Virus record (IMG/VR): IMGVR_UViG_3300010375_000005
Location: 1 to 44,925 of that record
Direction: 5' to 3' (one strand)
Origin: a virus
Length of the DNA: 44,925 nt
How positions within the stretch are numbered: the stretch's first letter is position 1; every line of letters begins with the position of its first letter. This document shows positions 12,710 to 35,389 of this stretch, one piece after another. Below the pieces are notes generated by a model. The model was not told the origin of the DNA and did not search any database. It worked only from the letters and a program-made list of their open reading frames with translations. Both the position numbers and the translations under genes were made by a program.

Positions 12710-12749
12710 GGGCGTAAATATAAATAAAAAAATAAATTATTGCATTTTA

Positions 12750-12780
12750 TTTGTTATTGTGATTATTTGTAGTATATTTA
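12750..12780 (+). promoter_or_regulatory. Cassette promoter family, copy 1 (TTTG-19nt-TATATTTA)
   Basis: The 31 bp at 12749-12779 (ATTTGTTATTGTGATTATTTGTAGTATATTT) are identical to the copies at 16235 and 20497. Confidence 0.7.
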
Positions 12781-12793
12781 CATCAGATAATCA

Positions 12794-12985
12794 ATGAAGG
12801 TTATCGTAAAAAGCTTGACGGCAATGAAAAATAAAATCTTAACACCAGTTAAAATTCACAAGTATAAAGATTATACTATTCGGGTTACAAAAAGCGGCTT
12901 GTATAAAATTCACACAGTTAGTGGCTATCTGTTATTTACAAGAACAACATTAAAAGATGTTAAAGCAAGCATCGATTTGATATAA
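12794..12985 (+). CDS. Hypothetical basic protein (63 aa)
   Basis: First ORF after the promoter copy. Confidence 0.5.
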   Translation: MKVIVKSLTAMKNKILTPVKIHKYKDYTIRVTKSGLYKIHTVSGYLLFTRTTLKDVKASIDLI

Positions 12986-13112
12986 ATATTAACCCGATAA
13001 GCCCGTCAAGCACGGGTTATTCTGCCAATACCGGGAAAAATGCGTAAACCCGTCTACGCAACCTCGCCTAACACGCGGGGTTTTGGTAGTAAAAAACCAC
13101 TATATTTATATC

Positions 13113-13223
13113 ATGAAAACTTTAAAACTTAATCCTATCATGCTGGTGCCAATATTAGTCGCCGCTTTTTTTATCACATGCATAGTTTGGGCTGTAATTC
13201 ACAGGAATGCAATTAACTGGTAA
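13113..13223 (+). CDS. Micro-ORF encoding a 36-aa transmembrane peptide
   Basis: Own translation: MKTLKLNPIMLVPILVAAFFITCIVWAVIHRNAINW*. TAATG-coupled to the next ORF. Confidence 0.35.
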   Translation: MKTLKLNPIMLVPILVAAFFITCIVWAVIHRNAINW

Positions 13224-13402
13224 TGAGTTTCATCCCGTACCAAACGCAAGAAATACTAATGTACTTCGATGCGATCAACTGCATTCATGATGTTCAGGTA
13301 ATTTCTGATTATTTGAATGAAAATGCAGATGATTATTCACCGGGTGAGTTGTTGGCGCTAAAGAAGTTGCTTAAGCTTTACGCTGAATTATTTACGGCTT
13401 AA
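13223..13402 (+). CDS. Hypothetical acidic protein (59 aa)
   Basis: Own translation: MSFIPYQTQEILMYFDAINCIHDVQVISDYLNENADDYSPGELLALKKLLKLYAELFTA*. Confidence 0.4.
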   Translation: MSFIPYQTQEILMYFDAINCIHDVQVISDYLNENADDYSPGELLALKKLLKLYAELFTA

Positions 13403-14012
13403 TTATAAACGTAAACGAGTCGGCAAAATGACCAATGCCGTCATCATCGCCTGTAAGTATTATCGCATCTCCAGTATCTACATTATTGGCCGCGCCCGAA
13501 TAGTTGCTTCCATCTGCATTGCGAAATATAAGTGTAGGATTATTCATAGTTGTTGCCGTTTCAATCGTAAACAGTATACCTGGCAATACACCAATGGTAA
13601 AGGTATCACCTTGATTATACCCACTGCCTGGATTGGTTTGCGTTATCGAATCTGCAACATTGCCAACGGTTACCACTGTAAAATGAGCGCCAACACCTGT
13701 TCCTGTAACATTTACAGCGGGCTCATTTACATAGATAGTATCAGGTGATGAAGTTACACCGGTCCCGGTTGGAGTAAGTATTGTGTAATATATAGTAACG
13801 GGGTTATTGCTTGTACCGCCTATGATTGGCGTTTCTATTTGTTGAGCCCCTGCACCGGGAACAACGGCCAATACAGCGCGCCAATTTGGCAAATCATCGT
13901 CGGCGAAATCCAATGTGCCTTTAGTGGTATCGTAATATAAATTTTCACGAACGGCTATTTTACTTCCAAATATCGCGCTTATTATCCGGCTTATTACACT
14001 TTCGTTTTTCAT
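13392..14012 (-). CDS. Tail fibre/baseplate-associated protein (206 aa)
   Basis: The ATG at 14012 forms an ATGA overlap with the upstream stop (the track start at 14027 is TTG). Thr/Gly-rich and sits in the tail module. Confidence 0.55.
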   Translation of the reverse strand: MKNESVISRIISAIFGSKIAVRENLYYDTTKGTLDFADDDLPNWRAVLAVVPGAGAQQIETPIIGGTSNNPVTIYYTILTPTGTGVTSSPDTIYVNEPAVNVTGTGVGAHFTVVTVGNVADSITQTNPGSGYNQGDTFTIGVLPGILFTIETATTMNNPTLIFRNADGSNYSGAANNVDTGDAIILTGDDDGIGHFADSFTFIIKP

Positions 14013-16114
14013 AATTTGATATAACAAAGCATAATTAAACCATCATTAGCCACACTAATAGCAGTACCGGCACCCAAATTTGCAGTAACGCCCAAAGTTG
14101 GTGCAATTGTTCCCTTAACTATTTCATAATTCAATGCCTGCGTACCGGATGACCTGGCCCTGGCAACGGGGTCATTAATACCAGGTGTATCTCCAGCAGT
14201 TGCGTTTACCTGTGTGGTAAACATATTCAACCCTTCGGCTGGCAGATTTGCCCTGGCTATGGTTAATGAGTTGCCCGGATTGCCAACTTCTAAAGCACCA
14301 GTAATACCGGGTGTTCCGCGTCCTAAATCAGGATCTATAGTTGCCCTGTCCCACGCAACCAAAACCTTACCTTTCGCCTCGTCATAAATTTGGCAGCCCT
14401 CATATAAGCTGCCTACTTGGCCCAAGCCGGTTGCAATATCCCAATCCCTGGTAAAATATCCTGCAACCAATTCCTTGTAATAAGCAATCGTCCCTTGTGG
14501 TAGCGATGATCCAGTTCCGGCCGGTGCTGTTATGGCGGGGCTATCCAACTGGTCATAAACAAATATTAGTCTGATGCTAATCCCATCGGGTAGTGTAACA
14601 TAAACAGATGTTGCTGCATTAAATCCGGTTAACGGCCTGTGGGTTTCAATTAACTCAATCGACAAATCCGCGTTAGGTGTACCTATTTCGCCCTCATAAA
14701 TCTCATTGCCGCCTAAAGTAGTACCGATTTTCAGCGTAAATGTTGCAAGGTCAGGATTAATAGTTTCAAAATAGTCAATCGTGCTATATTGGGTAAACAC
14801 GCCATTTATAACGAATGATGCAGGGAATAAAGGAAACGGCGTTGTTGCCGGCCATGTTTTTCTTACCACTATTAAATCTCCTTTTGGCGTTGTTCCCGCC
14901 GTTAATTGCCCAAATTCAAAGCCCTTTACTATTTGCAGATCACGCTCATAATTATACCCGTTTCGGTTATATGTCGATGTTGGCCGATCTCCTTTAAAAT
15001 CTCCCGCTGCAACATAAAATTCATAATCAATCTTAACCTGGTCGCATTTGGCCCAAATCAAATTTAACTGTTTTATACGCCAATCGGGTAATTGAATTTC
15101 ATAACCTGTTAAATAATGTGTATAAATATCGTAATTAAATCCGTTTAATAAAACAGGATTATAAGGCTGATCTTCAAAAACTTCACGGCTGTCTTTTGGC
15201 TGATAGCCACCTATGAAGTTTCCGGCTATTCGTGTTTGTAATATTAGCTCACTGGGATGGAATAAGATAGATTCCGTATTTTCAGAATTTTGATATTGAA
15301 TTAATTGCGTATCAGGGTGATTCTGCTGTACATCAATAGGGCAACTTATCCAGCTTTGTATATTTGGTACAACCGGATCATCGTCTGCTATATTAATCGG
15401 TGCGATAACAGTTGCAGTATCATCTGTGGTTACTACTGCATTATAGGCTGCACCCGGCTGTGCCGTTCCCGAATAGCTAAATGAATTTGCACCGTTCTGT
15501 ACTTCTGATTTATCATAAATGACTGTAGCAATACCATTTAAGGTCTTGGTAACTGTTAGCCTTATCCTGGGATTTAAAGCACCTGATATAAATGTACTAA
15601 TTGCAGTAAACTGGTAAGACTGACCGGCCAATGCCTGACCCGTGTATGAGCCGTTAATTAACAAGTCAGAAACAACTATAGCATTAATTTCAGTCTGTAG
15701 ATTACCCTGTACAAATGGGCTTGTGAGTTCTGTTAGTTGCGCGTTAATCGTGGCTGGTAAATTAGCATCATAAGATATACGGCCATAACAGCGGCCAATA
15801 GGAAATGCTGAAAAATCAACCATTGCGAGGTATTGCAGGAATGTTTTACCAATGATTGATGACGACGTTGCACCTAATACGGGGGATGTAATATGGACAT
15901 TGCGACACGTTAAAAATTCGAGCGTCATATCCGGGAAGTCGGAAAGCAGGACCAACGCGGGGAAGTTAGTATCTGTTTTTTGGATGGGGACGGCGTAATT
16001 TTGGTCGTCGACTTCGAGATCGGCGGGGAGTGAGTTTAGATTAGGATCGGGTGTGAACGTTTCTAATGTCCATCTGAAACCATTGAGGCCCGATATATAG
16101 AAAACACCGCTCAT
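14009..16114 (-). CDS. Distal tail/baseplate structural protein (701 aa)
   Basis: Large ORF in the tail module downstream of the tape measure; no enzymatic motif. Confidence 0.65.
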   Translation of the reverse strand: MSGVFYISGLNGFRWTLETFTPDPNLNSLPADLEVDDQNYAVPIQKTDTNFPALVLLSDFPDMTLEFLTCRNVHITSPVLGATSSSIIGKTFLQYLAMVDFSAFPIGRCYGRISYDANLPATINAQLTELTSPFVQGNLQTEINAIVVSDLLINGSYTGQALAGQSYQFTAISTFISGALNPRIRLTVTKTLNGIATVIYDKSEVQNGANSFSYSGTAQPGAAYNAVVTTDDTATVIAPINIADDDPVVPNIQSWISCPIDVQQNHPDTQLIQYQNSENTESILFHPSELILQTRIAGNFIGGYQPKDSREVFEDQPYNPVLLNGFNYDIYTHYLTGYEIQLPDWRIKQLNLIWAKCDQVKIDYEFYVAAGDFKGDRPTSTYNRNGYNYERDLQIVKGFEFGQLTAGTTPKGDLIVVRKTWPATTPFPLFPASFVINGVFTQYSTIDYFETINPDLATFTLKIGTTLGGNEIYEGEIGTPNADLSIELIETHRPLTGFNAATSVYVTLPDGISIRLIFVYDQLDSPAITAPAGTGSSLPQGTIAYYKELVAGYFTRDWDIATGLGQVGSLYEGCQIYDEAKGKVLVAWDRATIDPDLGRGTPGITGALEVGNPGNSLTIARANLPAEGLNMFTTQVNATAGDTPGINDPVARARSSGTQALNYEIVKGTIAPTLGVTANLGAGTAISVANDGLIMLCYIKL

Positions 16115-16194
16115 GCTGACAGTTTGTTTAACAGTTCAATAATAGCCTTACAGCATTGACAATTCTCTAAACATGCACCGCATATACATCTCAT
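16111..16194 (-). CDS. Cysteine-rich micro-ORF (27 aa)
   Basis: Own translation: MRCICGACLENCQCCKAIIELLNKLSA*. ATGA-coupled to the 701-aa gene. TACATTTA (-7-like) lies 4 nt upstream of its ATG. Confidence 0.35.
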   Translation of the reverse strand: MRCICGACLENCQCCKAIIELLNKLSA

Positions 16195-16232
16195 GGTGTA
16201 AATGTAATTAAAATAAAAAATAAATCAGAAAT

Positions 16233-16293
16233 AAATTTGTTATTGTGATTATTTGTAGTATATTTGTATTGTCAATCAAGGCAAATTAAAAAA
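16233..16293 (+). promoter_or_regulatory. Cassette promoter plus conserved leader, copy 2 (61 bp identical to 20495-20555)
   Basis: TTTG at 16236-16239, 19-nt spacer, TATATTTG at 16259-16266, then the leader TATTGTCAATCAAGGCAAATTAAAAAA. Confidence 0.8.
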
Positions 16294-16303
16294 ACGTTAG
16301 AAA

Positions 16304-16591
16304 ATGGCAACTTTAAGAAAAACACAGGAAGGTTACAATATGGTAATCATGAATGCTACAGAACGCAAGGCATTCGACAAAATAATGAGTGCTAAATTAT
16401 ATGACGAAAACACTCCATTTTTTACCCCATGTGATAATCTTAAATTCTTTTATATTAAAGAAGTTGAGGTTGATTATATGAATCGGGAAACCACCATCAT
16501 CGCAAATGGTAAAACAGTGTTGGTAAAACACACATTCATGAATTCCAATACTAAAATAGATAAGGCGGTGCGTAAAGCATACGGGAATTAA
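16304..16591 (+). CDS. Hypothetical cassette cargo protein (95 aa)
   Basis: ORF lying exactly between the conserved 5' and 3' blocks. Confidence 0.6.
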   Translation: MATLRKTQEGYNMVIMNATERKAFDKIMSAKLYDENTPFFTPCDNLKFFYIKEVEVDYMNRETTIIANGKTVLVKHTFMNSNTKIDKAVRKAYGN

Positions 16592-16659
16592 AAGCACTCT
16601 GATTTGCCTTGATAACGTTTTCAGCGTATTAGCGCAATTCGAAAGGATTGCGCTTTTTT
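16591..16659 (+). terminator. Conserved 3' trailer block plus intrinsic terminator
   Basis: AAAGCACTCTGATTTGCCTTGATAA (16591-16615) is identical to 21255-21279. Hairpin gcgcaat/attgcgc (16632-16653) is followed by T6. Confidence 0.75.
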
Positions 16660-16724
16660 AAATAAAAAAGGTCTACATTTCTGCAAACCTTTCCTTATCT
16701 TTATTGCGCAAACAATTTAAAGAC

Positions 16725-18068
16725 ATGGTAAAGGTAAAAAACAATCCTCAATTGCGCAATAGTACGCCGTTTAAATTAGGCACATTCTGCTCCGGAATAG
16801 GTAGCCCCGAACAATCACTAAAAGAACTTAACGCTAATCATATCAATGTTTTCGCATGTGAAAAAGACAAATTCGCACGTCAAACATATTTAGCAAATTT
16901 TACACCCGGAATAATGTTAGAGGATATGACTAAGGAAACTTACGATGATCCTGAATTATACGCTGATTTAGTCGTTGCGGGTATCCCGTGCCAGTCGTTC
17001 AGTTTGGCAGGAAAACGGCAAGGTGAAAACGATCCGCGTGGATTGTTAATTTATGATTTTATCAGATATGTTCGAAAACGCAGGCCAAAGGTGTTTATCA
17101 TTGAGAATGTAAAAGGATTGCTTAGTGATGCAGGTGGGGTTACTTTTGGCAAATGGCTTGAATTATTAGGGTGTTCACGAAATGGGCAACCGAATATGTT
17201 TAACCATCCTGAATCGTTGGGTTATAATTTGAATTACAGGGTACTGAACGCAAAACATTACGGGTTGCCACAAAATAGGGAGCGTGTTTTTATTGTTGGT
17301 ATTAGGCCTGATTTGCCTAATAGTTACGTTTGGCCTAAACGGGTAGTTTTGAAAGATAGGTTGATTGATTTGTTGGAAAGTGAAGTTGATGAGAAGTATT
17401 ATTTGAGTGATTTAATGATGAGCAAATTCTCAGAATGCGGTACGTTTATAAATCAAGATATACAATCAAGTCGAGTGCATGACATTTTCGGATGTGTACC
17501 CGCTAATATAGCGGGTACACATGGGTATTCTATGGGATATATAAAATCGGTGGCTTTTAACGGCAATCAAAAAAAGAAAATACATACAGAAAATGATATT
17601 GCGTCCTGTTTAAATATTGGGAGCAATGCAAGCGGTTCATATAATAATTTGACACTCTTGCATGGTGCAAAATTTGAAGCGAACCGCATATACGATAGTA
17701 ACGGAATTGCCAAAACTCAAAAATCAAATGGTGGTGGTGGTGGGACTAAAACGGGGTATTATAGTGTTAAACAACTCAACCAATCAAAAGAATCCGGATG
17801 TAAACAACCATATCAGCAAAACCGTGTTTATGATAGTAATGGATTATCAACCGCCATAGATCAGGTAGCGGGTAGGTGGGGAACGAATATTCACCGCATA
17901 CGCCGACTAACCCCACTCGAATGCATGCGCCTAATGGGCTATCCTGATAGTTTTATCAAACCATGCAGCGAAACGCAAACCTACAAACAAGCCGGAAACT
18001 CCATCCCTATCCACATGATGAAAGTAGTATTAAAGCCATTATTGCCACTATTAGAAAACACGCATTGA
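16725..18068 (+). CDS. DNA (cytosine-5)-methyltransferase
   Basis: FCSGIGSPEQ (motif I), GIPCQSFSLAGKRQG (IV), ENVKGL (VI), QNRERVFIVG (VIII), RRLTPLECMRLMGYP (IX) and GNSI (X). ATG at 16725 is preferred over the track's TTG at 16704. Confidence 0.9.
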   Translation: MVKVKNNPQLRNSTPFKLGTFCSGIGSPEQSLKELNANHINVFACEKDKFARQTYLANFTPGIMLEDMTKETYDDPELYADLVVAGIPCQSFSLAGKRQGENDPRGLLIYDFIRYVRKRRPKVFIIENVKGLLSDAGGVTFGKWLELLGCSRNGQPNMFNHPESLGYNLNYRVLNAKHYGLPQNRERVFIVGIRPDLPNSYVWPKRVVLKDRLIDLLESEVDEKYYLSDLMMSKFSECGTFINQDIQSSRVHDIFGCVPANIAGTHGYSMGYIKSVAFNGNQKKKIHTENDIASCLNIGSNASGSYNNLTLLHGAKFEANRIYDSNGIAKTQKSNGGGGGTKTGYYSVKQLNQSKESGCKQPYQQNRVYDSNGLSTAIDQVAGRWGTNIHRIRRLTPLECMRLMGYPDSFIKPCSETQTYKQAGNSIPIHMMKVVLKPLLPLLENTH

Positions 18069-20468
18069 CAAATCATTCCCCGCACCCAAAAGCACCTTAA
18101 TCCCCTGCGGAGAATTACTACCACAATCAACGGACACCTCGGATATAAACGATTTCCAGTTAACACCACGGTACATATACCAAATTTCCCCAAATGGATT
18201 TAACGTCAACATCTGTTCGGCGTTAAACTGCATTCCAGTAGTTATATTGTCATAATAAGGCAGGAATATTTGACTGCCCAAATCACTAATATTAACCATA
18301 TCGCCTTCACTAACGCGCCGGCCATTCAAATCAACCGTAATCATCGACGTATTTTTATCGGCACCGGTTAAGTATATTTGATAGTCGCCCATCTTATCAA
18401 ATACCGAAGCGAGATAATTGCCCCCGCGTAATAGATTTTGCATCGGGCTAAGCGGCCAGTTATAAACTTCCGGCGAAACTCCACTCCAACTTGTACAACC
18501 ATCTGCAACGGTTAATGGTTGATAGTAACCGCCAATTTCAGCCGCTGGACGTACATAAACAAAATGATTATCATTATCCGATCTCGAAGCTGCTGAATTA
18601 AGATAAAACGTCCCGCTCAATCCCGATGACGGCTGATTATAACCAGGTTGAATGCGTTTTTCCTCAATAGCATAAGCAGATGCGTTTATCGGGCAAACGA
18701 TATCCAATACATTATTTGTAGTCGAAATCTTAGTCCCGTAGGCCACACCTGCGTTAACTTCTTTACCGCCGTTCAAGCTGGTTAATTGCGGATTAGCATA
18801 ACCACCCTTAATGCCATTGATTAGCAAATCTTCGGCAACCTCTAAACGTGGCGATTTAATATCGATCTGATTGCCCAAATCTAACGCGGCCTGATTTGGT
18901 GTTGCACTTGGCGGAGTTGCTCTGAAAAAATACCGCAAATCTTCCATGCAAAATTTTGGCGTTCCATCCGGAGCTAAATTAGTCGGGTCTAATCCGGCGC
19001 CTAATTGAGCACCCATTAAACCGCGAATAGCCTTGAAAAAGGTGTTATAGCTAAGTAGTAATCGTGGGTTGTTATTTTCCTGCTGCACAAATCCATCCTG
19101 ATCGGAATCTGTTGTAAATGTATCGTGCGGAAATATGGCTTTAAAAATACTACCCGGCGCGTAATCGGTGACAATTCCATCCGAATTAAAATAGTGTACT
19201 ATACCCCCGTACACCTTATATTGATTACCGTATTGTAAACTATCCCCGGCCTGGTATATCGTTGCCGCTTGTGATGTTAAGATTGCATTAGAGCACGTAA
19301 TACAGGCTTGGTAAAGCAAGCCATTAAGTCCTAACAGCCTCGATTGTGTCGTTACGGTCGGCTGATCTGTACCGTTCATTTGCTGCACCAAATAATCAAA
19401 CACGTATTCAGGCCGTAACGCCTGGCAATGTGTCGCCGGGGTTGATGTGTAATAAGTCATCCGCATTGAGCCGCCCTGCATATTTACGCCGTGTCCGGTA
19501 CCATTATCGAGCGTTGGGTCAAGTATATTTTTTATGTAGAAATACAGTTTATCACCCTGATTTAATTGCAATGAAAAGTCAAACTCAAAGGTAAATTCAA
19601 CTGTTCCAATTACCGGCGGCGATGTGGCTAACGTTTTTACCAATGTGCCGTCCTGCTTATAAATATTAAACTCATATTGCCCGGTGCCGCCGCCTGATGG
19701 GCCATTGATTGACGTTTGCACACCGCCGGGTATAGGTAATCCTGTAATAGGGTCTAATGGACTACTTAGTCTTATTTTGGTATCGGTTTGAGCGACAAAA
19801 AAGAAATTACCGTTCCGAGGAAATACCGGAGGACCTTGCCATAAAAACCCCGTCCCGGTTACAGACGGACTAACTGACATTTGTTGATAGTCGGCAATTT
19901 CCATCTGAAAAAAAGCGTTCATACGGAAATCGGGACTTGTTGAAAATATCATATCCGCCTGTTCCTGCAATAATAACGGGGTTAACAATATATCTACCAT
20001 AGGATCATAACCACGCGTAGCTATCCATGCCGCCCGTTGTGTTGGATTTACCGTTAATGGTATTTGATACGGTGTATCACCATAAGCCGCAATTTGCGTG
20101 TTGATGTTCTTTTGGATTAATGGAATTGATACCCCCGTAGGTTCATCGCTCCATTTTGAAAAATCAGGACGGCCAAAAAAGAATTGTTCATCCTGAAATG
20201 TTAGCGGGTTGTTTCGTAATATGCGCTGATTAACGCGGGTCATTTGACCAGTTTTGTAAAATTCCCTTCGCATCAATGACGCGCCCTTGTTTACATACTT
20301 GACAGGCAATGTGTAATTATATAGCACTCCGCCGTATAATTTACTGCGCTCTAATTTGATGTTAGTTTGCAACCAACCGTCGGGCGTATTGAATAACACA
20401 TCCGTTTCTACTCCGCGAATTTCGAGAGGGTAGGTAAATTTATTTGGTTGGGGTTGGGGGCTGTTCAT
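18051..20468 (-). CDS. Large tail structural protein (805 aa; distal tail/tip candidate)
   Basis: First large minus-strand ORF after the tape measure gene. Confidence 0.65.
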   Translation of the reverse strand: MNSPQPQPNKFTYPLEIRGVETDVLFNTPDGWLQTNIKLERSKLYGGVLYNYTLPVKYVNKGASLMRREFYKTGQMTRVNQRILRNNPLTFQDEQFFFGRPDFSKWSDEPTGVSIPLIQKNINTQIAAYGDTPYQIPLTVNPTQRAAWIATRGYDPMVDILLTPLLLQEQADMIFSTSPDFRMNAFFQMEIADYQQMSVSPSVTGTGFLWQGPPVFPRNGNFFFVAQTDTKIRLSSPLDPITGLPIPGGVQTSINGPSGGGTGQYEFNIYKQDGTLVKTLATSPPVIGTVEFTFEFDFSLQLNQGDKLYFYIKNILDPTLDNGTGHGVNMQGGSMRMTYYTSTPATHCQALRPEYVFDYLVQQMNGTDQPTVTTQSRLLGLNGLLYQACITCSNAILTSQAATIYQAGDSLQYGNQYKVYGGIVHYFNSDGIVTDYAPGSIFKAIFPHDTFTTDSDQDGFVQQENNNPRLLLSYNTFFKAIRGLMGAQLGAGLDPTNLAPDGTPKFCMEDLRYFFRATPPSATPNQAALDLGNQIDIKSPRLEVAEDLLINGIKGGYANPQLTSLNGGKEVNAGVAYGTKISTTNNVLDIVCPINASAYAIEEKRIQPGYNQPSSGLSGTFYLNSAASRSDNDNHFVYVRPAAEIGGYYQPLTVADGCTSWSGVSPEVYNWPLSPMQNLLRGGNYLASVFDKMGDYQIYLTGADKNTSMITVDLNGRRVSEGDMVNISDLGSQIFLPYYDNITTGMQFNAEQMLTLNPFGEIWYMYRGVNWKSFISEVSVDCGSNSPQGIKVLLGAGNDLSMRVF

Positions 20469-20494
20469 AAACCAAATGTAAATAAAATTAAATA

Positions 20495-20555
20495 AAATTT
20501 GTTATTGTGATTATTTGTAGTATATTTGTATTGTCAATCAAGGCAAATTAAAAAA
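20495..20555 (+). promoter_or_regulatory. Cassette promoter plus conserved leader, copy 3
   Basis: TTTG at 20498-20501, TATATTTG at 20521-20528. The 61 bp are identical to 16233-16293. Confidence 0.8.
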
Positions 20556-20564
20556 TGGAAAAAG

Positions 20565-20969
20565 ATGACTACAACAGCCACATACCCCTCAAGCACAGTT
20601 GCACCAAGTATTGAAACTTTATTTGTTAACGGTATCAAGTTTGATATTTGTGAATTGATTAAAGAGGCTTACGATATGATTGTTGACAAAAGATTTAGGT
20701 ATTTTGTATGTGTTGAGGATAATCATATTGTGCAATTCTCTGCATGCGAAAAATACTTTCAGGTCACGGGTGAAACCCGTTGGGATTTCTTTTGTATCAC
20801 AAAAGGCGAATGTATTGCATGGGTTAATGATTATCAGCAACAATGCGATAAGGTTGCTTCCTATAACCAAAGTTTGGCAAAAAAGCCATTAATGCGCCAA
20901 ATGATTGCTCCCAAAATACAGGCAATAAACGAAAGGTGTTTAACATTATTTGGTGTAAAAGCCGCTTAA
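20565..20969 (+). CDS. Hypothetical cassette cargo protein (134 aa)
   Basis: ATG at 20565 (MTTTATYPSS...). The track's TTG at 20526 lies inside the -7 box. Confidence 0.6.
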   Translation: MTTTATYPSSTVAPSIETLFVNGIKFDICELIKEAYDMIVDKRFRYFVCVEDNHIVQFSACEKYFQVTGETRWDFFCITKGECIAWVNDYQQQCDKVASYNQSLAKKPLMRQMIAPKIQAINERCLTLFGVKAA

Positions 20970-20971
20970 TT

Positions 20972-21256
20972 ATGGGACATATTTTAATAAAACTAAAAAC
21001 AAAACCCCAAATAGAAAATTGCTATTTGGTTTATTCTACAATTGTAGATGCGCCTATAACATACGGAGCGACAAAAAAGCAAATAATAAATTGGTATAAA
21101 AAAGAATACGGAAGGCAAGGATTAGAGGGGATGGACAGGCGATTTGAAAAGGCCGAAGATGACAATTTTGTAAAAAGTGTAATCTGTTTAAACAGAGCCG
21201 GAGAAAATGAAAAACACATATCTTATAAAAAAATGATACAACGTTACTGTATATAA
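20972..21256 (+). CDS. Hypothetical cassette cargo protein (94 aa)
   Basis: ATG at 20972 (MGHILIKLKT...), 2 nt after the upstream stop. Confidence 0.55.
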   Translation: MGHILIKLKTKPQIENCYLVYSTIVDAPITYGATKKQIINWYKKEYGRQGLEGMDRRFEKAEDDNFVKSVICLNRAGENEKHISYKKMIQRYCI

Positions 21257-21320
21257 AGCACTCTGATTTGCCTTGATAAAGTTTCAGGGTATTAGTCGTT
21301 AAGGAATTAACGGCTTTTTT
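21255..21320 (+). terminator. Conserved 3' trailer block plus intrinsic terminator
   Basis: The 25-bp block at 21255-21279. Hairpin agtcgttaa/ttaacggct (21294-21315) is followed by T6 and overlaps the stop of the convergent tape measure gene. Confidence 0.75.
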
Positions 21321-24300: not shown

Positions 24301-24852
24301 TGCTTCGGCTGATTTGGTCGCACTAATAGCCATATTTTCATTTCCGGTGATAATTGGTTCATATCTGACAGCGGGATTATCATCGGAAGTAACAGGATTG
24401 TACGGCGTTTGGCTATTTGCAAATTGAGTATTAGCTTTTCTGTTAGCGATAGCATCTAACTTAGCCTGTTTAGATTCAGCCGCTGCAATTTCTTTTGCAT
24501 CCATGGCCGCTTGCTTTGCTTCGGCTTCCTGTCTGGCTTGCTCCTGTTTGGAAAGCATCACCAGGTACTTGTTTAATATTTGTTCCTGTTTAGCTGCTTT
24601 GGCTTGCTCATTTTTAATTTGCTTATTATTGTTGGCAATTATCTTATTAGTTGCTTCGGTTGAGGCCTGTAGATTTTTGTTAAATGTACCAGGCGTTGAG
24701 CCGCCTAATGTGGCATTTAGTTTGATGGCCGTTTCGAGTAATGCAACTAACTCGGTACGGAGTTCTTTACCGGCTATTTGTAGTTGGGTGAATTGTTGGA
24801 TCGCCGCGGGGTCAACTACCTCGTCGATTGCTGTTGTATTTCCTGATGCCAT
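21319..24852 (-). CDS. Tail tape measure protein
   Basis: 1177 aa, mostly coiled coil with a hydrophobic central segment. C-terminal GYAVVGEVGPERIVEPGRPAYYSPG is typical of tape measure proteins. Confidence 0.9.
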   Translation of the reverse strand: MASGNTTAIDEVVDPAAIQQFTQLQIAGKELRTELVALLETAIKLNATLGGSTPGTFNKNLQASTEATNKIIANNNKQIKNEQAKAAKQEQILNKYLVMLSKQEQARQEAEAKQAAMDAKEIAAAESKQAKLDAIANRKANTQFANSQTPYNPVTSDDNPAVRYEPIITGNENMAISATKSAEAIAVENAALVEQKEVLASLSVAQRANLELLLALQSERAENAAELKALNVEDAASGERLVFLTQRQLELSIAIRETQTELNRQTKEMLAADTSMKKLDQSVLLLRNSYEQLTAAERESTQGQKMLAELQALDAENKALAVSTGNTSKEVGAYEKAIARATSGSQLAATAINVATRSLVRMVVQFALIGVIIEAVSALWTYIKALEIFNDVATTSAIKQQALTDAFTSGDYEKGIENIEKLAANLDLAKTGIVDSDKAINEYNDTIGKTFGYVTNLNDAQKGFTDHSDAYIQAIYLEAAAQAALANASKFAAEQLAKNVELQAEASNIRYDIIGAKQMGFSKAVIQNQKDQVKDLEKEIEGNNKRAIQSYKNTVDAVKDLYKQAGATNPGSSAGADPVNDLRTKIANEQLEHEKIIAQAKINNDKLSYKERLVAVQQFYNASAKIEENNQNAELVKLPANDARREDIIKAGANKLLELQEQTASQRRGLLDKQYKQDQEIIKNNLEKQKDLFKAILDDPNQSYDMKLIALDYYNKKSQELIQANYKEQVKEAGKNSESIKLAEQNKDKAILQLTNETASEKLKIEKENLQKILEQGRISQQDQLDLIDQGSNLAIQALTSVHDKKENALSLLRAKGKISEEKFNKELLALNDQFAIDRISAEIATQQAILAAREGNRDAVALRMKVDNEPQRDIDKFVSDANKGIQPVKNKLSGLGNDLNNAQSKQQRDQANGGRDKKADLEATLDDAKTIVSDINDLIDKGYENQISKLEKIGEKINENAQIEKAAIDRSLDTQANKARRQLVLDAETASQQKNIQRQIAEEKHKQAVADKAAAIAEIILNTAIGVSKVLGQTGIFGLAAWIPVAALGALQLAKVAATPIPQFAKGTPTGGHKGGYAVVGEVGPERIVEPGRPAYYSPGVATMMNLPRGTVVEPYKMLPETPKWTSTRSDNRDVVEAIDRLSRKDTRQKQPRLSGWIEAQRQADAWNGYRASRFK

Positions 24853-26468: not shown

Positions 26469-26502
26469 ACCCCAAAGATATAAAATTTATTTTGATTATT
26501 TG

Positions 26503-26532
26503 TTTGATATTGTGATTATTTGTGTAGATTTG
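26503..26532 (+). promoter_or_regulatory. Cassette promoter family, copy 4 (TTTG-18nt-TAGATTTG)
   Basis: The spacer ATATTGTGATTATTTGTG shares ATTGTGATTATTTGT with copies 1-3. The -7 box ends 3 nt before the ATG at 26536. Confidence 0.7.
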
Positions 26533-26535: not shown

Positions 26536-26778
26536 ATGAAAAAACTTTCGCCTGTTCAGCAACGCGTTGTTGATGCTCTTAAAAACAATGACAGCTACAT
26601 TCAGCGTAGTAAATATTACAATCATAATAAAGTAATTTCACGTGTTCCATTTAAGATAAATGGGCGCGAATATTATTGTTTATTACAATTCACAAGTCCT
26701 ACTTTTGAGGTTTTACTTAATAATGAAATCATAGTAAAATCACAAGACGGAAACGAAACTTATATTTTAACCAAATAA
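26536..26778 (+). CDS. Hypothetical protein (80 aa)
   Basis: ATG at 26536 (MKKLSPVQQRVVDALKNN...). Confidence 0.55.
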   Translation: MKKLSPVQQRVVDALKNNDSYIQRSKYYNHNKVISRVPFKINGREYYCLLQFTSPTFEVLLNNEIIVKSQDGNETYILTK

Positions 26779-26786
26779 ATACCAAC

Positions 26787-26969
26787 ATGCCACAACAAAA
26801 ACCACCCCGAACAAACAACAACAAAATAGATTCCTGGATCGATGATGATACGTGGAATGCTTTGGACAATTACATGCAATCAGCCGGACGCAAACGCGCC
26901 GATGCTATCCGTATACTTTTACGAAAACAACTCGAATTAGAAGAGTTGATTAAAGGGGGAAAGAAGTGA
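26787..26969 (+). CDS. Ribbon-helix-helix (CopG/Arc-like) DNA-binding protein
   Basis: KIDSWIDDDTWNALDNYMQSAGRKRADAIRILLRKQL fits a strand-helix-helix pattern. Confidence 0.5.
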   Translation: MPQQKPPRTNNNKIDSWIDDDTWNALDNYMQSAGRKRADAIRILLRKQLELEELIKGGKK

Positions 26970-27217
26970 TTGGTGAGGAAAAAACCGGTTGTCGATTTTG
27001 CCAACAGTTGGTAAATGAAATTAATTACATCCGTGATGTTGAAATAAAGCATCTTGAATCAAAAGTTCAAGATACCTGTAACGTAATTAATCAACTATAC
27101 GAAATGGTATCAATGGGCTCTTACGGCGATCTTGAATTTGCGGAGCATTTTATAAGAGACAATTATATACCGACTGAAAAAGAAGTTAAGGATTTAGAAG
27201 ACGACCTGCCGTTTTAA
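26966..27217 (+). CDS. Hypothetical acidic protein (83 aa)
   Basis: GTG start overlapping the upstream stop. Confidence 0.45.
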   Translation: MIGEEKTGCRFCQQLVNEINYIRDVEIKHLESKVQDTCNVINQLYEMVSMGSYGDLEFAEHFIRDNYIPTEKEVKDLEDDLPF

Positions 27218-27223
27218 CCAATC

Positions 27224-27460
27224 ATGACCAACCTCACCTACATAGAAAAAAACTTCCGCCTCAACTGGGAGGGTAAACGCGAAAAAGTAAAACCGCGCCT
27301 TACCAAACCATTACGCACTACCATTTCCGCACCTCGTTTGATTGAGATAATTGGCGAACACCGGGCCGAATTTATATTCAATTCTATGCGTAAAATGAAA
27401 GGTGATAAAAAGACATACAAGGTACAGGATAAAGGCCGCTTAACTGTCTATGTAAAATAA
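27224..27460 (+). CDS. Hypothetical basic protein (78 aa)
   Basis: ORF only. Confidence 0.5.
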   Translation: MTNLTYIEKNFRLNWEGKREKVKPRLTKPLRTTISAPRLIEIIGEHRAEFIFNSMRKMKGDKKTYKVQDKGRLTVYVK

Positions 27461-27559
27461 CGATTTTAAGCCCCGTGACGTTAGTTTAGTAATTTTTTGG
27501 TAACTCATATCGGGAAAATGATAAAAGTAGTTTAAAAAAGTAATTTCAAAAAAAAGTTT

Positions 27560-27865
27560 ATGGATTTAAATAGCAAAAAAGGCATATTACCTAAAAGGGT
27601 AATTCAGTTTTATACTGGATTTAATTGTGGATACAATGGTGATGATTTTGCTCAAAATAGGGTAACAATATGGAAGAAGTTCGAAGCGTCAGGCATAAGA
27701 TTTAAGTTACTATACACTACCGGTAGCGGTATGATTTTTATTAACGCCTATAATCAAAGTTCAGGCGCGGGGTGCGATTATTCATTAACATCGTTGGTGA
27801 TAGATTCAACTACGTTCGACATTATACGCGAAACCTGTAAGGAAATATTAAAATTGGTAAAATGA
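27560..27865 (+). CDS. Hypothetical protein (101 aa)
   Basis: ORF only. Confidence 0.5.
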   Translation: MDLNSKKGILPKRVIQFYTGFNCGYNGDDFAQNRVTIWKKFEASGIRFKLLYTTGSGMIFINAYNQSSGAGCDYSLTSLVIDSTTFDIIRETCKEILKLVK

Positions 27866-27943: not shown

Positions 27944-27966
27944 CCCCAAATAAATCAAACTAAAAA

Positions 27967-28149: not shown

Positions 28150-28152
28150 GGC

Positions 28153-29133: not shown

Positions 29134-29172
29134 TTTAGTATTTTTTGTGCCGGCTTATTTCATCCGACTTGT

Positions 29173-30864: not shown

Positions 30865-30867
30865 GGC

Positions 30868-32220
30868 TTAAACGACTGCTGATATTGCGGCCAAAATAGT
30901 CGCGTAATCATCGTAAATAAATGCCTGCTGGTCAAGCTTTTTAACATAAGCATGCCAGCGGCTTTCACCCAGGATCACGAACTGATTTTTAATAAAATCA
31001 TCGTTAATCCATCCTATCTTGACGCGATAACCCAGGTAATTCGATGTGTTGTATTTGCTCATATCTGCAACAAATATCTTACCTGCCGGGATCATCTCTT
31101 CAGGCAGAATAGTTACACCGCCGATTTCAACGCGGTTAAACAGCGACGCCATTGGGTAAAGTGGTAAACCACGTTCGTCTTTTGCAGCAACCAGATGAAT
31201 GAAAAAATCAATCGGGTTAACTAAACACAAAGACGGCATGTATGGCATTTCGTCCTGATAATTATGTGTAACATATACATCTGTGATACACGCGTTAACC
31301 ACATCCATAAAATTCGGAAAACGAACAGTGTTTGCCATTGCCCCCGCAGCGAATACGCGGCCATATTGGGTCGCGCCAACAAGTGCAGCTAATGCCACAT
31401 CTCCAAACAGGATAGCACGTTGTTTTTTAATATCATGCTTGTCTTTAAGGAATCCGGTTGCAATTGACTGCAGTCCCAGAATGTCCTGTACTGATTGTTC
31501 TGACAAATGCTCCCACGCGGCCATAGTGAACGGCTGTGCATAGCGGGTTTCGATCTTGAAATCGATTTGAGCCTTTGCGTCACCCTCTGCCAATTGAAAA
31601 GCAAAGTCGCCATCTTTGGGGACGGATTCGGTATACGGATATGCCGCCAATGATGTGTTAAAATTATTTGTCAGGCTGTTAATGAGGTTAGTCCTCATGT
31701 TAACGCGTGACGGAGGCGCCATTTGAACGCCAACCAATTCAGGAATCCCGTCTGGGTTAGTTGCGCTGCCGACAGTTCCAGAACCACCGCCGTCATCAAC
31801 AATGGCGTTACCGCTTGTCATATTACCAACAGCTTTAACCTCAAACTCAACAAAGCCCTGACCTTTTTGCTTTAGGTTTTTGATGGTTTCAAAGTTTTCC
31901 TGAATGAAATCACGAACGGCCTTATTGATACTTTTCAGCGATAAGCCTTTGCCGGTTTCAACCGCCTGGTTTGCCTTTTCTTTAGCTTCGTTGACTTCGG
32001 TTTTGAGGCCCTTGATTGTAGTTTCCTGCTCATCAAGTTTTGTTTTCAATGCAGCGTTTTCCGTTTTGAATAAATCAACCTTATCGCCTATAGCCTTAAT
32101 AGCCGCAACTGTTCCATCGTTGCCACCACCTTCGCCACCAGGATTAGGATCTAATTTAGCACGGAAAAACATCGAACCCGAGGCGCTACCTGGCCCCATA
32201 GTTAGAAATACTTTTTTCAT
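30868..32220 (-). CDS. Major capsid protein (HK97-like) with an N-terminal coiled-coil delta-like region
   Basis: 450 aa, directly after the protease. Coiled coil KTKLDEQETTIKGLKTEVNEAKEKANQ. Confidence 0.75.
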   Translation of the reverse strand: MKKVFLTMGPGSASGSMFFRAKLDPNPGGEGGGNDGTVAAIKAIGDKVDLFKTENAALKTKLDEQETTIKGLKTEVNEAKEKANQAVETGKGLSLKSINKAVRDFIQENFETIKNLKQKGQGFVEFEVKAVGNMTSGNAIVDDGGGSGTVGSATNPDGIPELVGVQMAPPSRVNMRTNLINSLTNNFNTSLAAYPYTESVPKDGDFAFQLAEGDAKAQIDFKIETRYAQPFTMAAWEHLSEQSVQDILGLQSIATGFLKDKHDIKKQRAILFGDVALAALVGATQYGRVFAAGAMANTVRFPNFMDVVNACITDVYVTHNYQDEMPYMPSLCLVNPIDFFIHLVAAKDERGLPLYPMASLFNRVEIGGVTILPEEMIPAGKIFVADMSKYNTSNYLGYRVKIGWINDDFIKNQFVILGESRWHAYVKKLDQQAFIYDDYATILAAISAVV

Positions 32221-33050: not shown

Positions 33051-33051
33051 T

Positions 33052-33357: not shown

Positions 33358-33411
33358 TTCTTTACTTCTTTATCTTTTAACCGTTCTTTAACTTGTTGAG
33401 TTAACTTGGGA

Positions 33412-34698
33412 TTATTCACTTTTTCCGCCGCCTGTTTTAGACGTTCCGGCTTGGACTGGGACTGCGTTGATTGTTGCATAATCTAAATGTGTAAATTCGG
33501 TATCTAAGGTAGAATTAATTTCGTCAATTTTCACACCTGCTTTCATAAAATTTATTAATGCCTGTGATAAGAACAATTGCCCCTGCGCTTTTAGCTTAGC
33601 TGAAGCTTGTGTAAATGGCAGGTGATCCCATGAGATTACTATACTTTTTGTTGAATATCCGAAGCGTTTAGTAAACGCGTTCATTAATTGATCTCCGGCT
33701 GGCTGCAATGTGTAATCAACATGCGCGCCCCTGGCAATTTCCTGATTTTCATATGTTGAGCCTTTTAATGACGCCTCTAACACGTCGCGCGGGATGCCGA
33801 ATAATGAACCGACTTTGAAATAATCATCCCAATATGACTTGTCAAGATCTTCTATAACCGCCGATTGCTCCACAAAACGTTTAATATCAATCATTGATTT
33901 AACGGCATGAACACTTTTTGTGCCGTTCATCTTAGTTTCAATGTCTTTTTTTTCATCTTCATGTAACGGCGATTGTAGTATATTATTCGGGTCAGCTTTA
34001 CCAGCGACCATATATTTACCGGCGAACCGTAATGTTATATTCTTACTACCGGCACCGGCCCGTCCGTTAGCTATAATTTGGTAAATAGCATCTATTGTTG
34101 ACGATCCCCTAAACCAATTTCCGGTTCCGTTACTCAAATCAGGCACGTGCGTTATCCTACCCCATTTTATTTGTTGACTGTCGCCTCCTGAATACCTGTA
34201 ATTAATTATTAACTCATTGATTAACTTCTCTGTAGCTGATGATAAAACAATCATATCCCTGTACTTATTCATTTCGGCCGGGAATACCATTTTATAGCTA
34301 TCGAGCATATAAAGTTTATTGGTTGTGCTTTGGGCGCTGTCGCTATCAACGTAGCAATAGGCATTGCCAATCATCTTCCAAAACATATAGTCCCAAAGGA
34401 ATTGACTTTTTTGCTGAAATGGGTTTGGGTTATTAATTAATGTTATAAATGGGTCGTTTGGTACTATTTTACCATTCCTGTAAACATAAACTTCTCCCAT
34501 GCTGAACATATCGCATTGAAGCTTGAATACCTTAAGGACAGCTGGATTAGAGAATACTGCCGCTACTTTTAATCGATCATTTGAAAAGTTAGTAAAGTCA
34601 GCATTAGGGTCGAGCATAAACATGTCGTTTGGCCCCCACTGTTCGATATAATCGTTAAGCCCGAAAATTGATGCTGCAATACTTTGAAACCAATTCAT
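33412..34698 (-). CDS. Portal protein
   Basis: 428 aa, positioned between terL and the protease/capsid genes. Confidence 0.7.
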   Translation of the reverse strand: MNWFQSIAASIFGLNDYIEQWGPNDMFMLDPNADFTNFSNDRLKVAAVFSNPAVLKVFKLQCDMFSMGEVYVYRNGKIVPNDPFITLINNPNPFQQKSQFLWDYMFWKMIGNAYCYVDSDSAQSTTNKLYMLDSYKMVFPAEMNKYRDMIVLSSATEKLINELIINYRYSGGDSQQIKWGRITHVPDLSNGTGNWFRGSSTIDAIYQIIANGRAGAGSKNITLRFAGKYMVAGKADPNNILQSPLHEDEKKDIETKMNGTKSVHAVKSMIDIKRFVEQSAVIEDLDKSYWDDYFKVGSLFGIPRDVLEASLKGSTYENQEIARGAHVDYTLQPAGDQLMNAFTKRFGYSTKSIVISWDHLPFTQASAKLKAQGQLFLSQALINFMKAGVKIDEINSTLDTEFTHLDYATINAVPVQAGTSKTGGGKSE

Positions 34699-34734
34699 GT
34701 ATTATGTTTCGGTAAATGTAAATTAAATTATTGT

Positions 34735-34765
34735 AAAAAAGAAAAAGCCAGTCAAATTGACTGGC
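34735..34765 (-). terminator. Intrinsic terminator after the Imm-5-like gene
   Basis: gccagtca (34747-34754) pairs with tgactggc (34758-34765). On the minus strand it is followed by TTTTTCTTTTTT. Confidence 0.7.
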
Positions 34766-34794
34766 TGATCCAAAGTATAGAACTTTTCAGGAAA

Positions 34795-35322
34795 CTATAC
34801 AGTTTCTTTTTTAGTGGTGAAATCTTTTAAAAATTGCAGTAGTAATTCTTGGTATTTCGCTTTACCGTTTGTTTTTTTAGCGTCGGCGGCGGCGGCTTCG
34901 GCGGCGGCGTAGGCGGCGTAGGCGGCGTAGGCGGCTTCGGCGGCTTCGGCGGCGGCTTCGGCGGCGGCGGCTTCGTAGGCGGCGGCGGTTTCCCTTTTTT
35001 CTCTCAATACATCAATAGTAATTATACCTGCCAAATAGTCTTTAGCTGCCTGTATTGCTTCTCTTGGTGCTTTATTGTTGGGGTATTTATCTTCATAAAT
35101 AGGCAACACACATAATGCACAACCTATAGCGAATTGGCGAAATTCATCTACGGTAAATTCGCAATTATATCTAATAAACCAGGCTTTGTGTTTTAAAGAT
35201 ACGTTTGCTGATAAAATATCAGTAATTGTAAATTCATCATTAGGTAGATAATCATTTTGCCGATTATTGTTTTCGGCATAACATCCAAAATTAGAAGTGT
35301 TTTTTGTGAATTCTGTTTTCAT
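34795..35322 (-). CDS. Imm-5-like helical protein with a C-terminal alanine-rich repeat
   Basis: CALCVLPIYEDKYPNNKAPREAIQAAKDYL is followed by AAAYEAAAAEAAAEAAEAAYAAYAAYAAAEAAAADA. This pattern is recalled from the Imm-5/Imm-5-like putative immunity proteins. Confidence 0.55.
   Translation of the reverse strand: MKTEFTKNTSNFGCYAENNNRQNDYLPNDEFTITDILSANVSLKHKAWFIRYNCEFTVDEFRQFAIGCALCVLPIYEDKYPNNKAPREAIQAAKDYLAGIITIDVLREKRETAAAYEAAAAEAAAEAAEAAYAAYAAYAAAEAAAADAKKTNGKAKYQELLLQFLKDFTTKKETV
34881..34988. repeat. GC-rich triplet/9-bp tandem repeat tract
   Basis: ggcggcgta x3 (34903-34929), then ggcggcttc units. An almost pure (GCN)n island in an AT-rich genome. Confidence 0.9.
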
Positions 35323-35358
35323 TTTGAAAAGTTTTTAAGTCCGAATTATTTCAGTCTA

Positions 35359-35389
35359 CTAATATACTACATTTAATCACATTTGCAAA
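35359..35389 (-). promoter_or_regulatory. Cassette promoter family, copy 5 (minus strand; TTTG-19nt-TATATTAG)
   Basis: The minus strand reads TTTG CAAATGTGATTAAATGTAG TATATTAG. The spacer matches the + strand family at 14 of 19 positions. It abuts the terL stop. Confidence 0.6.

Follow-up and report, generated by a model that had tools for sequence, protein, structure and literature searches.

The moron, a promoter-open reading frame (ORF)-terminator unit lodged between conserved genes, is a concept reportedly due to Hendrix and colleagues. Classical morons were described in temperate phages and are expressed from the prophage, and we know of no report of a common promoter or operator, or of conserved untranslated region (UTR) frames, among them. 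Repressors of the ribbon-helix-helix (RHH) class (Arc/MetJ/CopG/omega-type) bind tandem repeats in their own promoters. Here, we describe five small cassettes in a soil Bacteroidota phage, in a stretch of 44,925 nucleotides (IMG/VR record IMGVR_UViG_3300010375_000005, positions 1 to 44,925; hereafter the window), each headed by a copy of one putative promoter with a shared spacer, and four of them carrying complementary 5' and 3' ends. Two further described systems come close. PeSL "mobile regulatory cassettes" are known from T4-type phages (Arbiol et al. 2010, PMC2839356; Comeau et al. 2014, PMC4122927). In the icaR mRNA of Staphylococcus aureus, a 3' UTR motif pairs with the initiation region, blocks initiation and makes a substrate for RNase III (Ruiz de los Mozos et al. 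2013, PMC3868564).

The 15-mer ATTGTGATTATTTGT occurs exactly at 12756, 16242, 20504 and 26509 (+), and the wider pattern TTTGNNANTGTGATTNNNTGT (TTTG-NNAN-TGTGATT-NNN-TGT) has five matches, at 12750, 16236, 20498 and 26503 (+) and at 35389-35369 (-), with none in 100 dinucleotide-preserving shuffles. The four plus-strand cores and the single minus-strand copy reported by an earlier sequence-only reading of this DNA are thereby recovered, as are the 31 bp common to copies 1-3 (ATTTGTTATTGTGATTATTTGTAGTATATTT, the last -7 base being A in copy 1 and G in copies 2 and 3) and the agreement of the copy 5 spacer at 14 of 19 positions. Copy 1 (12750-12780, +) reads TTTG-N19-TATATTTA with the spacer core TGTGATTATTTGTAG; copy 2 (16236-16266, +) reads TTTG-N19-TATATTTG, and copy 3 (20498-20528, +) has the same sequence. 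Copy 4 (26503-26532, +) has a spacer of 18 nt (TTTG-N18-TAGATTTG), and copy 5 (35389-35359, -) heads cassette 5. Copies 2 and 3 are alike far past the promoter, over 76 nt at the 5' end (92% identity) and again over a 3' element of ~40 nt.

The sigma-A (sigma-ABfr) consensus of the Bacteroidota consists of a -33 TTTG, about 19 nt of spacer and a -7 TAnnTTTG that spans T-12 to G-5 (PMC6847099). All five copies fit it, as had been proposed, with TTTG, spacers of 18-19 nt and the -7 boxes TATATTTA, TATATTTG, TAGATTTG and TATATTAG; the deviations are one -7 position in copy 5 and a G at -10 in copy 4. From the positions given in that study (PMC6847099), transcription is predicted to start near 12785, 16271 and 20533, at the A of ATG 26536 and near 35354 (-). 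Behind the copies, ORFs begin on the same strand at ATG 12794, 16304, 20565, 26536 and 35322 (-); the first ORF of cassette 3 has its start at 20565, rather than at 20526 or 20556. The ATG behind copy 4 lies 3 nt (tgt) beyond the -7 box, so that its mRNA is predicted to be leaderless. Other consensus promoters of the window, e.g., at 5214 (-), 5252 (+) and 39503 (+), have unrelated spacers, so promoters of this genome do not in general carry the shared one.

Megablast of positions 12000-36000 against INPHARED gave no match, and the phage therefore has no annotated close relative. In IMG/VR, 80 relatives were found through terL, the most useful being L014 (terL 88% identical) and L002 (77%); two further loci, L003 and L081, belong to one 43-kb contig with a terL 77% identical and tail genes ~80% identical to those of the window. 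The spacer element consists of two TGT repeats 10 bp apart (TGTGATTnnnTGT), and an alignment of eight promoter copies is invariant at TTTG, A, T, GTGATT, TGT, G, TA and ATT. Across 0.96 Mb of relatives, exact TGTGATTNNNTGTAG occurs in promoter context only, namely in the window, in L014 (two copies) and in L002. A degenerate promoter pattern retrieved from IMG/VR only contigs of these two relatives, and an exact search of that database with the 24-mer promoter gave no match. The degenerate 16-mer ATCAAGGCAAATYARA gave mostly chance hits among the matches listed, with L150 as the sole addition, and nhmmer profiles built from its matches were contaminated with non-family sequences and uninformative. 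A collection of 185,579 bacterial and archaeal genomes contains neither the promoter pattern nor the type-i leader (that of cassettes 2 and 3) and gives no clue to a host or prophage. By these searches, the spacer core is specific to this phage lineage.

A candidate regulator of the shared promoter is encoded in cassette 4, an RHH-like DNA-binding protein of 60 residues (26787-26969, +). It matches PHROG 4738 "transcriptional repressor" (E = 2.3e-5), as do five of six homologues. Its AlphaFold model (pLDDT, the predicted local distance difference test score, of 70) has two helices behind a short N-terminal segment, and ~28 of 34 Foldseek matches are RHH proteins (MatP, ParD, MazE, CopG, ParG, AmrZ, NikR, Arc), all with E > 2. 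Pfam and PDB sequence searches with this protein gave no match, and a PDB profile search gave only spurious ribosomal-protein matches. Two phage RHH proteins had been announced from the sequence; one RHH-like protein was identified.

Homologues with 45-78% identity place the RHH-like gene in six lineages, the window and five others, and the spacer motif or a TGT-N7-TGT variant is present in every such lineage that has the operon promoter on its contig (six of six evaluable). In the window, a second motif copy (ATTTTGATTATTTGT, 26489-26503, +) stands 20 bp upstream of the copy 4 core, and L218 and L222 likewise have two motif copies 20 bp apart, as at 26489-26523. The RHH operon promoter of L223 has a variant with one mismatch and that of L210 has TGTAGGTTATTGTAG, which keeps both TGT repeats at their 10-bp distance. 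The RHH gene and the motif are both missing from L081/L003. The sequence-only reading would have fallen with a spacer that varied freely among related phages, and the core was instead found in L014 (twice), L002, L218 and L222, with variants in L223 and L210. Downstream of the -7 box, the RHH operons of the window, L222 and L223 are leaderless, that of L210 has a type-i leader, and those of L014 and L218 have a type-ii leader; their first ORFs are non-homologous between lineages. Promoter and RHH gene have therefore been passed on together across recombination breakpoints. The promoter of the L218 RHH operon is identical to copies 1-3 over 37 nt, which in copy 1 includes the leader start ACATCAG.

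We infer that the spacer is an operator of the RHH-like protein, autoregulated at its own operon and copied onto the other cassettes, with the RHH-operon promoter as the probable donor to the newer ones. As in characterized RHH repressors, a small strand-helix-helix protein is encoded 3' of a promoter with phased direct repeats, and extra repeats are found there. The protein differs from them in having no significant match to a characterized family, and the repeat unit and its 10-bp phasing come from alignment only; autoregulation is plausible. The sequence-only reading had offered a common operator or a recently duplicated portable promoter module as alternatives. Both are supported and neither excludes the other, with the amendment that the portable unit is the whole cassette and not the promoter alone.

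That the spacer has no function, copies 1-3 being recent duplications, or versions homogenized by gene conversion, of one strong promoter that came along with the inserted cassettes, and copies 4 and 5 simply being older, we regard as unlikely. It would account for the 31 identical bp of copies 1-3, for the identity of copies 2 and 3 well into the leader and 3' element, and for the absence of cassettes 1-3 from L081, which makes them recent; moreover, a 94-kb phage contig has two type-i frames (leader plus 3' element) behind two different promoters, so frames need no such spacer. It accounts poorly for a TGTGATT...TGT core that survives where the RHH proteins are only 45-78% identical, that persists though neighboring spacer positions, leaders and first ORFs differ, and of which three lineages have a second, in-phase copy at the RHH operon promoter. 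A reader other than the RHH-like protein, be it a host transcription factor, another phage protein or a phage-modified RNA polymerase defining a temporal class, is quite improbable. The motif lies at -29 to -15, where activators, repressors and sigma appropriators act, the RHH assignment is weak, and L210 and L014 combine the same RHH N-terminal strands with different first half-sites. Against this, a host regulon with the exact site is unlikely given the motif's absence from promoter context in all 185,579 genomes, the phage proteins scanned yielded no sigma factor or RNA polymerase, and the motif and the RHH gene occur together in each evaluable lineage.

The cassettes were said to break up the structural operon, and the L081/L003 contig bears this out, as its genes abut where the window has insertions of 682 and 850 bp between tail genes ~80% identical to its own. 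Cassettes 1 and 3 and the 95-residue unit of cassette 2 are missing from that contig; cassettes 1, 3 and 5 are all insertions between genes that abut in relatives. The promoter copies had been located in gaps among the tail and lysis genes, which holds for the tail genes; none lies among lysis genes (the GH25 lysin gene is at 8235-8918), and copies are also found at the head-tail junction and between terL and the portal gene. Every cassette has a consensus promoter, and T-run terminators close cassettes 2, 3 and 5 (16631-16660, 21294-21320 and ~34767-34735). All cargo proteins except the RHH-like and Imm5-like ones are ORFans.

Cassette 1 (12710-13391, +; 682 bp) lies between the start codon of an 1117-residue tail gene (12709) and the stop codon of a 211-residue gene (13392), the orthologues of which meet in L081 at a 3-nt junction (CATGGTTTAA). 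Its cargo ORF of 63 residues (12794-12985) is followed by ORFs of 36 (13113-13223) and 59 residues (13223-13402), all on the plus strand, and there is no clear terminator at its end. Cassette 2 (~16221-16676, +), an insertion of ~455 bp by alignment with L081, occupies the divergent intergenic region between a 701-residue tail gene and a cytosine methyltransferase gene, with the A-rich microhomology AATAAAAAA at both edges. It comprises the type-i leader (16267-16303, beginning TATTGTCAATCAAGGCAAATTAAAAAAACG), a 95-residue cargo ORF (16304-16591), the type-i 3' element (16592-16630, beginning AAGCACTCTGATTTGCCTTGATAACGTTTTCAG) and an intrinsic terminator with a 10-bp stem before its T run. Cassette 3 (20469-21318, +; 850 bp) separates the stop codon of a tape-measure-like gene (21319-21321) from the start codon of an 805-residue tail gene (20468), which are 1 nt apart in L081. 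It has a type-i leader (20529-20564), cargo ORFs of 134 (20565-20969) and 94 residues (20972-21256), and a type-i 3' element running into the intrinsic terminator (21257-21320). A 19-residue upstream ORF (MEKDDYNSHIPLKHSCTKY, 20555-20614, +) begins in this leader, out of frame with the 134-residue ORF.

Cassette 4 (26536-27865, +) holds five small ORFs (26536-26778, the RHH-like gene at 26787-26969, 26966-27217, 27224-27460 and 27560-27865) at the head-tail junction, where L081 has a different opposite-strand module. Cassette 5 (34735-35389, -) consists of promoter copy 5, a leader, an ORF at 35322-34795 and the terminator. This ORF had been called an Imm-5-like gene inserted between terL and the portal gene; the name is upheld by a match to Pfam PF21805 (5.1e-9) and the insertion by its absence from that place in L001 and L003. 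Within the gene, at 34866-34997 (-), a GC-rich repeat with a 9-nt period (GGCGGCGGC/GTAGGCGGC...) gives the C-terminal half of the protein a low-complexity tract of Ala, Glu and Tyr (AAAYEAAAAEAAAEAAEAAYAAYAAYAAAEAAAADA).

The cassettes thus resemble morons in being autonomous transcription units between genes adjacent in a relative (at L081 junctions of 1-3 nt for cassettes 1 and 3, intergenic for cassette 2), often opposite to the late operon and with cargo unneeded for virion assembly. They depart from classical morons in that no lysogeny genes were detected in the phage. With PeSL they share a repeated, putatively strong early-type promoter for the host sigma factor, with an AT-rich upstream region and combined with stem-loop terminators, placed ahead of ORFan genes and marking points of insertion or replacement between related phages, occasionally inside virion modules. 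Recombination between PeSL copies produces indels, replacements and mini-circles; in the present cassettes, presence/absence and replacement of cargo between frames are observed. PeSL, however, is a single composite motif whose stem-loop overlaps or adjoins the promoter, with ~50 copies per genome in hyperplastic regions of large Proteobacteria myoviruses. The window has five copies in a 44.8-kb Bacteroidota phage with no detectable T4-type similarity in the searches run, and no stem-loop lies in or adjoins the promoter copies, the hairpins being at the 3' end. Its unit is two-ended, with a leader and a separate 3' element plus hairpin whose ends are mutually complementary, and its frame is common to unrelated phages behind different promoters.

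All four leadered cassettes have, after the stop codon, a stretch of 9-12 nt complementary to the 5' end of the same cassette, a relation that the sequence-only reading did not include. Cassettes 2 and 3 share the leader GTCAATCAAGGCAAATTAAAAAA and the 3' element A(A)GCACTCTGATTTGCCTTGATAA..TTTCAG., which begins 1-3 nt past the stop codon and is followed by the terminator. Their 5' arm ATCAAGGCAAAT lies in the leader (16275-16286 and 20537-20548, +), and its 12-nt reverse complement ATTTGCCTTGAT forms the 3' arm (16602-16613 and 21266-21277, +). In cassette 1, the 5' arm GCTTGACGG (12813-12821, +; shuffle p = 0.005) covers codons 7-9, and the 3' arm CCGTCAAGC (13003-13011, +) is 18 nt past the stop codon, in a local hairpin (12991-13018). 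In cassette 5, the 5' arm AACTTTTCA (35333-35325, -) occupies -11 to -3 of the AUG and the 3' arm TGAAAAGTT (34789-34781, -) lies 5 nt past the stop codon; both are kept in the orthologues of L014 and L002. Other arm pairs are AACTATCTCA/TGAGATAGTT in L014 and L218, AAAACTTCGC/GCGAAGTTTT in L225 (the same 95-residue cargo in a different phage) and AACTTTCAAAA/TTTTGAAAGTT in L042. In all, there are six distinct arm sequences of 9-12 nt each, and four of the six types overlap the AUG or end 1-3 nt ahead of it.

In an unbiased scan of 101 single-gene or two-gene units of the window, cassettes 2, 3, 1 and 5 take the top four ranks (12, 12, 9 and 9 nt). Complementarity of at least 9 nt is reached by 2.5% of mismatched pairs, used as the null, and, outside these four cassettes, by no more than 2 of the 97 remaining units. 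In a matrix of own against other ends, own pairs reach 9-12 nt and foreign pairs 4-7 nt, and among promoter-ORF units of the terL relatives, 4 of 45 reach at least 9 nt versus ~0.8 expected. The 12-bp helix is part of the minimum free energy (MFE) structure of five complete cassettes with 340-860 nt of unrelated cargo, at a base-pair probability of 0.92-0.99 (0.99 for the cassette 2 transcript and 0.92 for cassette 3), and the type-i helix gains a U-G pair. An arm exposed in a hairpin loop, in the manner of an antisense seed, was considered and dropped, as local MFE folds put the arms partly in stems. No Rfam 15 family reached its gathering score anywhere in the window, and a search of 12700-21400 gave none with E <= 1.

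A role of the arms in DNA, as inverted repeats at which cargo is moved or flipped by recombination or inversion, is suggested by exchangeable cargo flanked exactly by the arms, by different ORFs in the same frame in different phages, and by an HNH endonuclease gene, encoding the sole protein common with the 94-kb phage, ~650 bp from that phage's cassette, yet it is very unlikely because the six arm sequences are unrelated, unlike the sites of a site-specific recombinase, four of the six types lie on the translation-initiation region (and all just past a stop codon, on the transcribed strand), and the scanned window proteins yielded no integrase or other recombinase; arms of 9-12 bp are also too short for homologous inversion, the type-i U-G pair is possible only in sense-strand RNA, and inverted cargo was seen in 0 of ~20 cassette instances.

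Pairing in the mRNA recalls icaR, where a short 3' UTR motif is likewise complementary to the translation-initiation region of the same message; here six arm pairs, four of them at the AUG, are enriched over the null. In icaR, one chromosomal gene is concerned, and its long 3' UTR pairs with a Shine-Dalgarno (SD) sequence. Here, by contrast, the 3' arms are 5-19 nt past the stop codon, and the six arm sequences ride on mobile phage cassettes. The target is an A-rich leader without SD sequence, in one case the first codons and in type i the 5' terminus, and the pairing is predicted from sequence. The system has the logic of PeSL, though not its defining architecture, and resembles icaR; it belongs to neither.

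Beyond the window, about a dozen distinct contigs from IMG/VR and from Joint Genome Institute metagenomes carry the type-i leader directly behind -7 boxes of promoters whose spacers are quite different (L086, L087, L089, L150, L206, L207, L209, L210, L212, L215, L216 and L228), with one or two unrelated ORFs between leader and 3' element. One type-i pattern search fixed the arm in its query and is uninformative on arm conservation. Several of the frame-bearing phages have the frame at a divergent junction, where it opens an early-looking operon of small ORFs. When the window proteins were compared with six loci (L085-L089 and L150), only an HNH endonuclease was common, with L087/L088. The 95-residue cargo of cassette 2 recurs in five other contexts at 71-95% identity, among them a type-i frame (L228), a different complementary frame adjoining a different terminase (L225) and no frame at all (L227 and L229). 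Because this cargo and the frames recur in differing combinations, promoter, frame and cargo are three independently assorting units. The leader/3' frame appears to move horizontally between unrelated soil Bacteroidota phages without being tied to the promoter.

The shared endonuclease gene, of the HNH_3 family, lies at 2535-3047 (-) in the window, 5837-6334 in L088 and 3295-2798 in L087, and its product has 50% amino acid identity with that of the otherwise unrelated 94-kb phage, in which the gene is located ~650 bp upstream of the type-i cassette. In L227, an HNH_3 gene occurs ~1.5 kb upstream of the 95-residue cargo copy, a locus without a frame. A part of the endonuclease in cassette mobility is suggested solely by its adjacency in that one other phage, and we do not propose it. 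In L224, positions 400-500 contain a variant 3' element with the arm GATCGCCCATTGAT (CTCTGATCGCCCATTGATAAAG...TCAGGG) followed by a CCUCGC hairpin; its 5' end is off the contig, and its leader is predicted to carry ATCAATGGGCGATC (ATCAATGGGCGAT).

A second structured element follows the arm in cassette 1, a hairpin at 13022-13091 (+) of the form CUGCC...GGYRGUA, with a CUGCC outer stem, a CCUCGC-loop-GCGGGG inner stem and then (A/U)UU(C/U)GGYRGUA. It often stands behind a 3' arm, as in L014 (12556-12517), L087, L089, L150, L206, L215, L217, L210 and also L042, between ORFs 1 and 2 of early-looking operons, and it matches no Rfam family. By inspection, its outer stem has apparent compensatory changes between loci. 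Cassettes 2, 3 and 5 have a T-run terminator in its place. The hairpin might be an attenuator, a processing site or a protector of the 3' end.

Taken together, we hold it slightly better than an even chance that these are portable moron cassettes with an operator-bearing sigma-A-type promoter, RHH autoregulation and co-regulation, and 5'-3' UTR pairing. In the mechanism we propose, cassettes of promoter, leader, one to three ORFan genes, 3' element and terminator have been inserted precisely between structural genes. Host RNA polymerase would fire early from the five promoters, and the RHH product of cassette 4 would then bind the phased TGT repeats and shut down all five units. The finished mRNA would pair its 3' arm with its own leader or start region, which would limit translation or trigger processing and so keep expression insulated and short-lived. 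In SD-less Bacteroidota, initiation relies on an unstructured, A-rich leader (PMC6847099), and pairing would for this reason block new initiation or make a nuclease substrate, as in icaR. In type i, pairing at the extreme 5' end could instead stabilize the mRNA, so that the effect may be of either sign, and action of the arm in trans, from cassette 2 on cassette 3 or the reverse, is also conceivable. The broader proposition, that soil Bacteroidota phages exchange a standard cassette whose 3' arm, in most cases with a conserved CUGCC/CCUCGC hairpin behind it, pairs with its own leader or start as a built-in post-transcriptional limiter, to which this lineage adds one RHH-controlled promoter/operator, falls a little short of an even chance in our estimate.

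Several points weigh against this interpretation. The RHH assignment rests on one PHROG match, with no Pfam or PDB sequence match and Foldseek E values above 2. L210 shares the N-terminal strand of the RHH protein with L014, yet has TGTAGGT in place of TGTGATT, and the recognition sequence given here is therefore provisional. Recent duplication alone could be the source of the three identical copies. Pairing is not universal, as cassette 4 and other leaderless units have no arms, the arm of L150 is down to 6 nt, and L227 and L229, with the same 95-residue cargo, have none. The A/T-rich 9-nt arm of cassette 5 is individually weak (p ~0.01-0.03, duplex -12.7 kcal/mol). Single-base compensatory changes within one arm type were not seen, the covariation being between whole arm types, and several instances were noticed after the fact.

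On the opposite strand, -7 boxes also stand at the cassette borders. The box TATATTTA at 12715-12722 (-) lies 5 nt ahead of ATG 12709 and could restart the downstream tail gene as a near-leaderless mRNA; TACATTTG at 20473-20480 (-) lies 4 nt ahead of ATG 20468, a leaderless position; and TATCTTTG at 26473-26480 (-) lies 4 nt ahead of ATG 26468, back to back with promoter copy 4. The idea that a minus-strand restart promoter is always part of the inserted module is false for cassette 2, since L081 already has the box; for cassettes 1 and 3, it is possible. Over the window, -7 boxes (TAnnTTT[AG]) 3-5 nt ahead of an ATG number 18, versus 5.9 expected, and the boxed ATGs include 12709(-), 16194(-), 20468(-), 24852(-), 26468(-), 26536(+), 37043(-), 39538(+), 13113(+) and 5296(+). 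Such boxes would predict leaderless or near-leaderless mRNAs for many genes, which is unusual given that in Flavobacterium johnsoniae, leaders exceed 10 nt in 87% of transcripts (PMC6847099). ATG 16194 (-), in leaderless position, opens only a 27-residue ORF (16111-16194) that ends at the start of the 701-residue tail gene (16114) and is possibly a coupled upstream ORF. An ATG in a corresponding leaderless position precedes the tail gene of L081.

The promoter-like motif AATTATTTAnTTACATTTAc occurs upstream of the portal gene and tail module (34699-34745 (-) in the window; 4613 and 13016 in L014; 11396 in L003). It is common even to L003, which is without the TGTGATT promoter family, and may be a late-class promoter. 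Not every plus-strand gene among the tail genes is under the shared promoter, as the C5 cytosine methyltransferase gene (Dcm, 16704-18068, +) has its own -7 box, TATCTTTA, which L081 shares; both the gene and the region upstream are conserved there. In a 578-residue protein (43174-44910, -), a helicase C-terminal domain is joined to a DNA methylase domain of the N6/N4 type, and the phage thus encodes two DNA methyltransferases.

Bases 1-123 of the window are a perfect repeat of 44803-44925, and because of this 123-bp terminal repeat, the window represents a complete genome, circularly assembled or terminally redundant, with a length of 44,802 bp. The minus strand encodes most genes. Those for replication and recombination are beta clamp, YqaJ exonuclease, HNH, helicase, BT4734-like primase and DUF5906. 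The structural region has a terS-like gene, terL (35390-36661), the portal gene (33412-34698), the major head protein gene (30868-32220) and tail genes at 21319-24852 (tape-measure-like), 18051-20468 (805 residues), 14009-16114 (701 residues) and 9356-12709 (1117 residues).

If the proposed mechanism is true, phages of this group would plug accessory genes into essential operons without disturbing them, and the accessory genes inside the virion operon would be switched together, with a limiter that travels with any ORF loaded into the frame. The idea of the mobile regulatory cassette, as drawn from PeSL, would reach beyond T4-type phages, and 5'-3' UTR pairing, known in very few bacterial mRNAs, would become a recurrent and testable design. 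The cassette would be a natural modular expression part for Bacteroidota (promoter, operator, leader, 3' limiter and terminator), and could supply genetic tools for a phylum whose promoters are unusual and whose translation is SD-less. In a barely annotated phage group, it would also mark a set of ORFans as co-regulated early or accessory candidates for host takeover and anti-defense.

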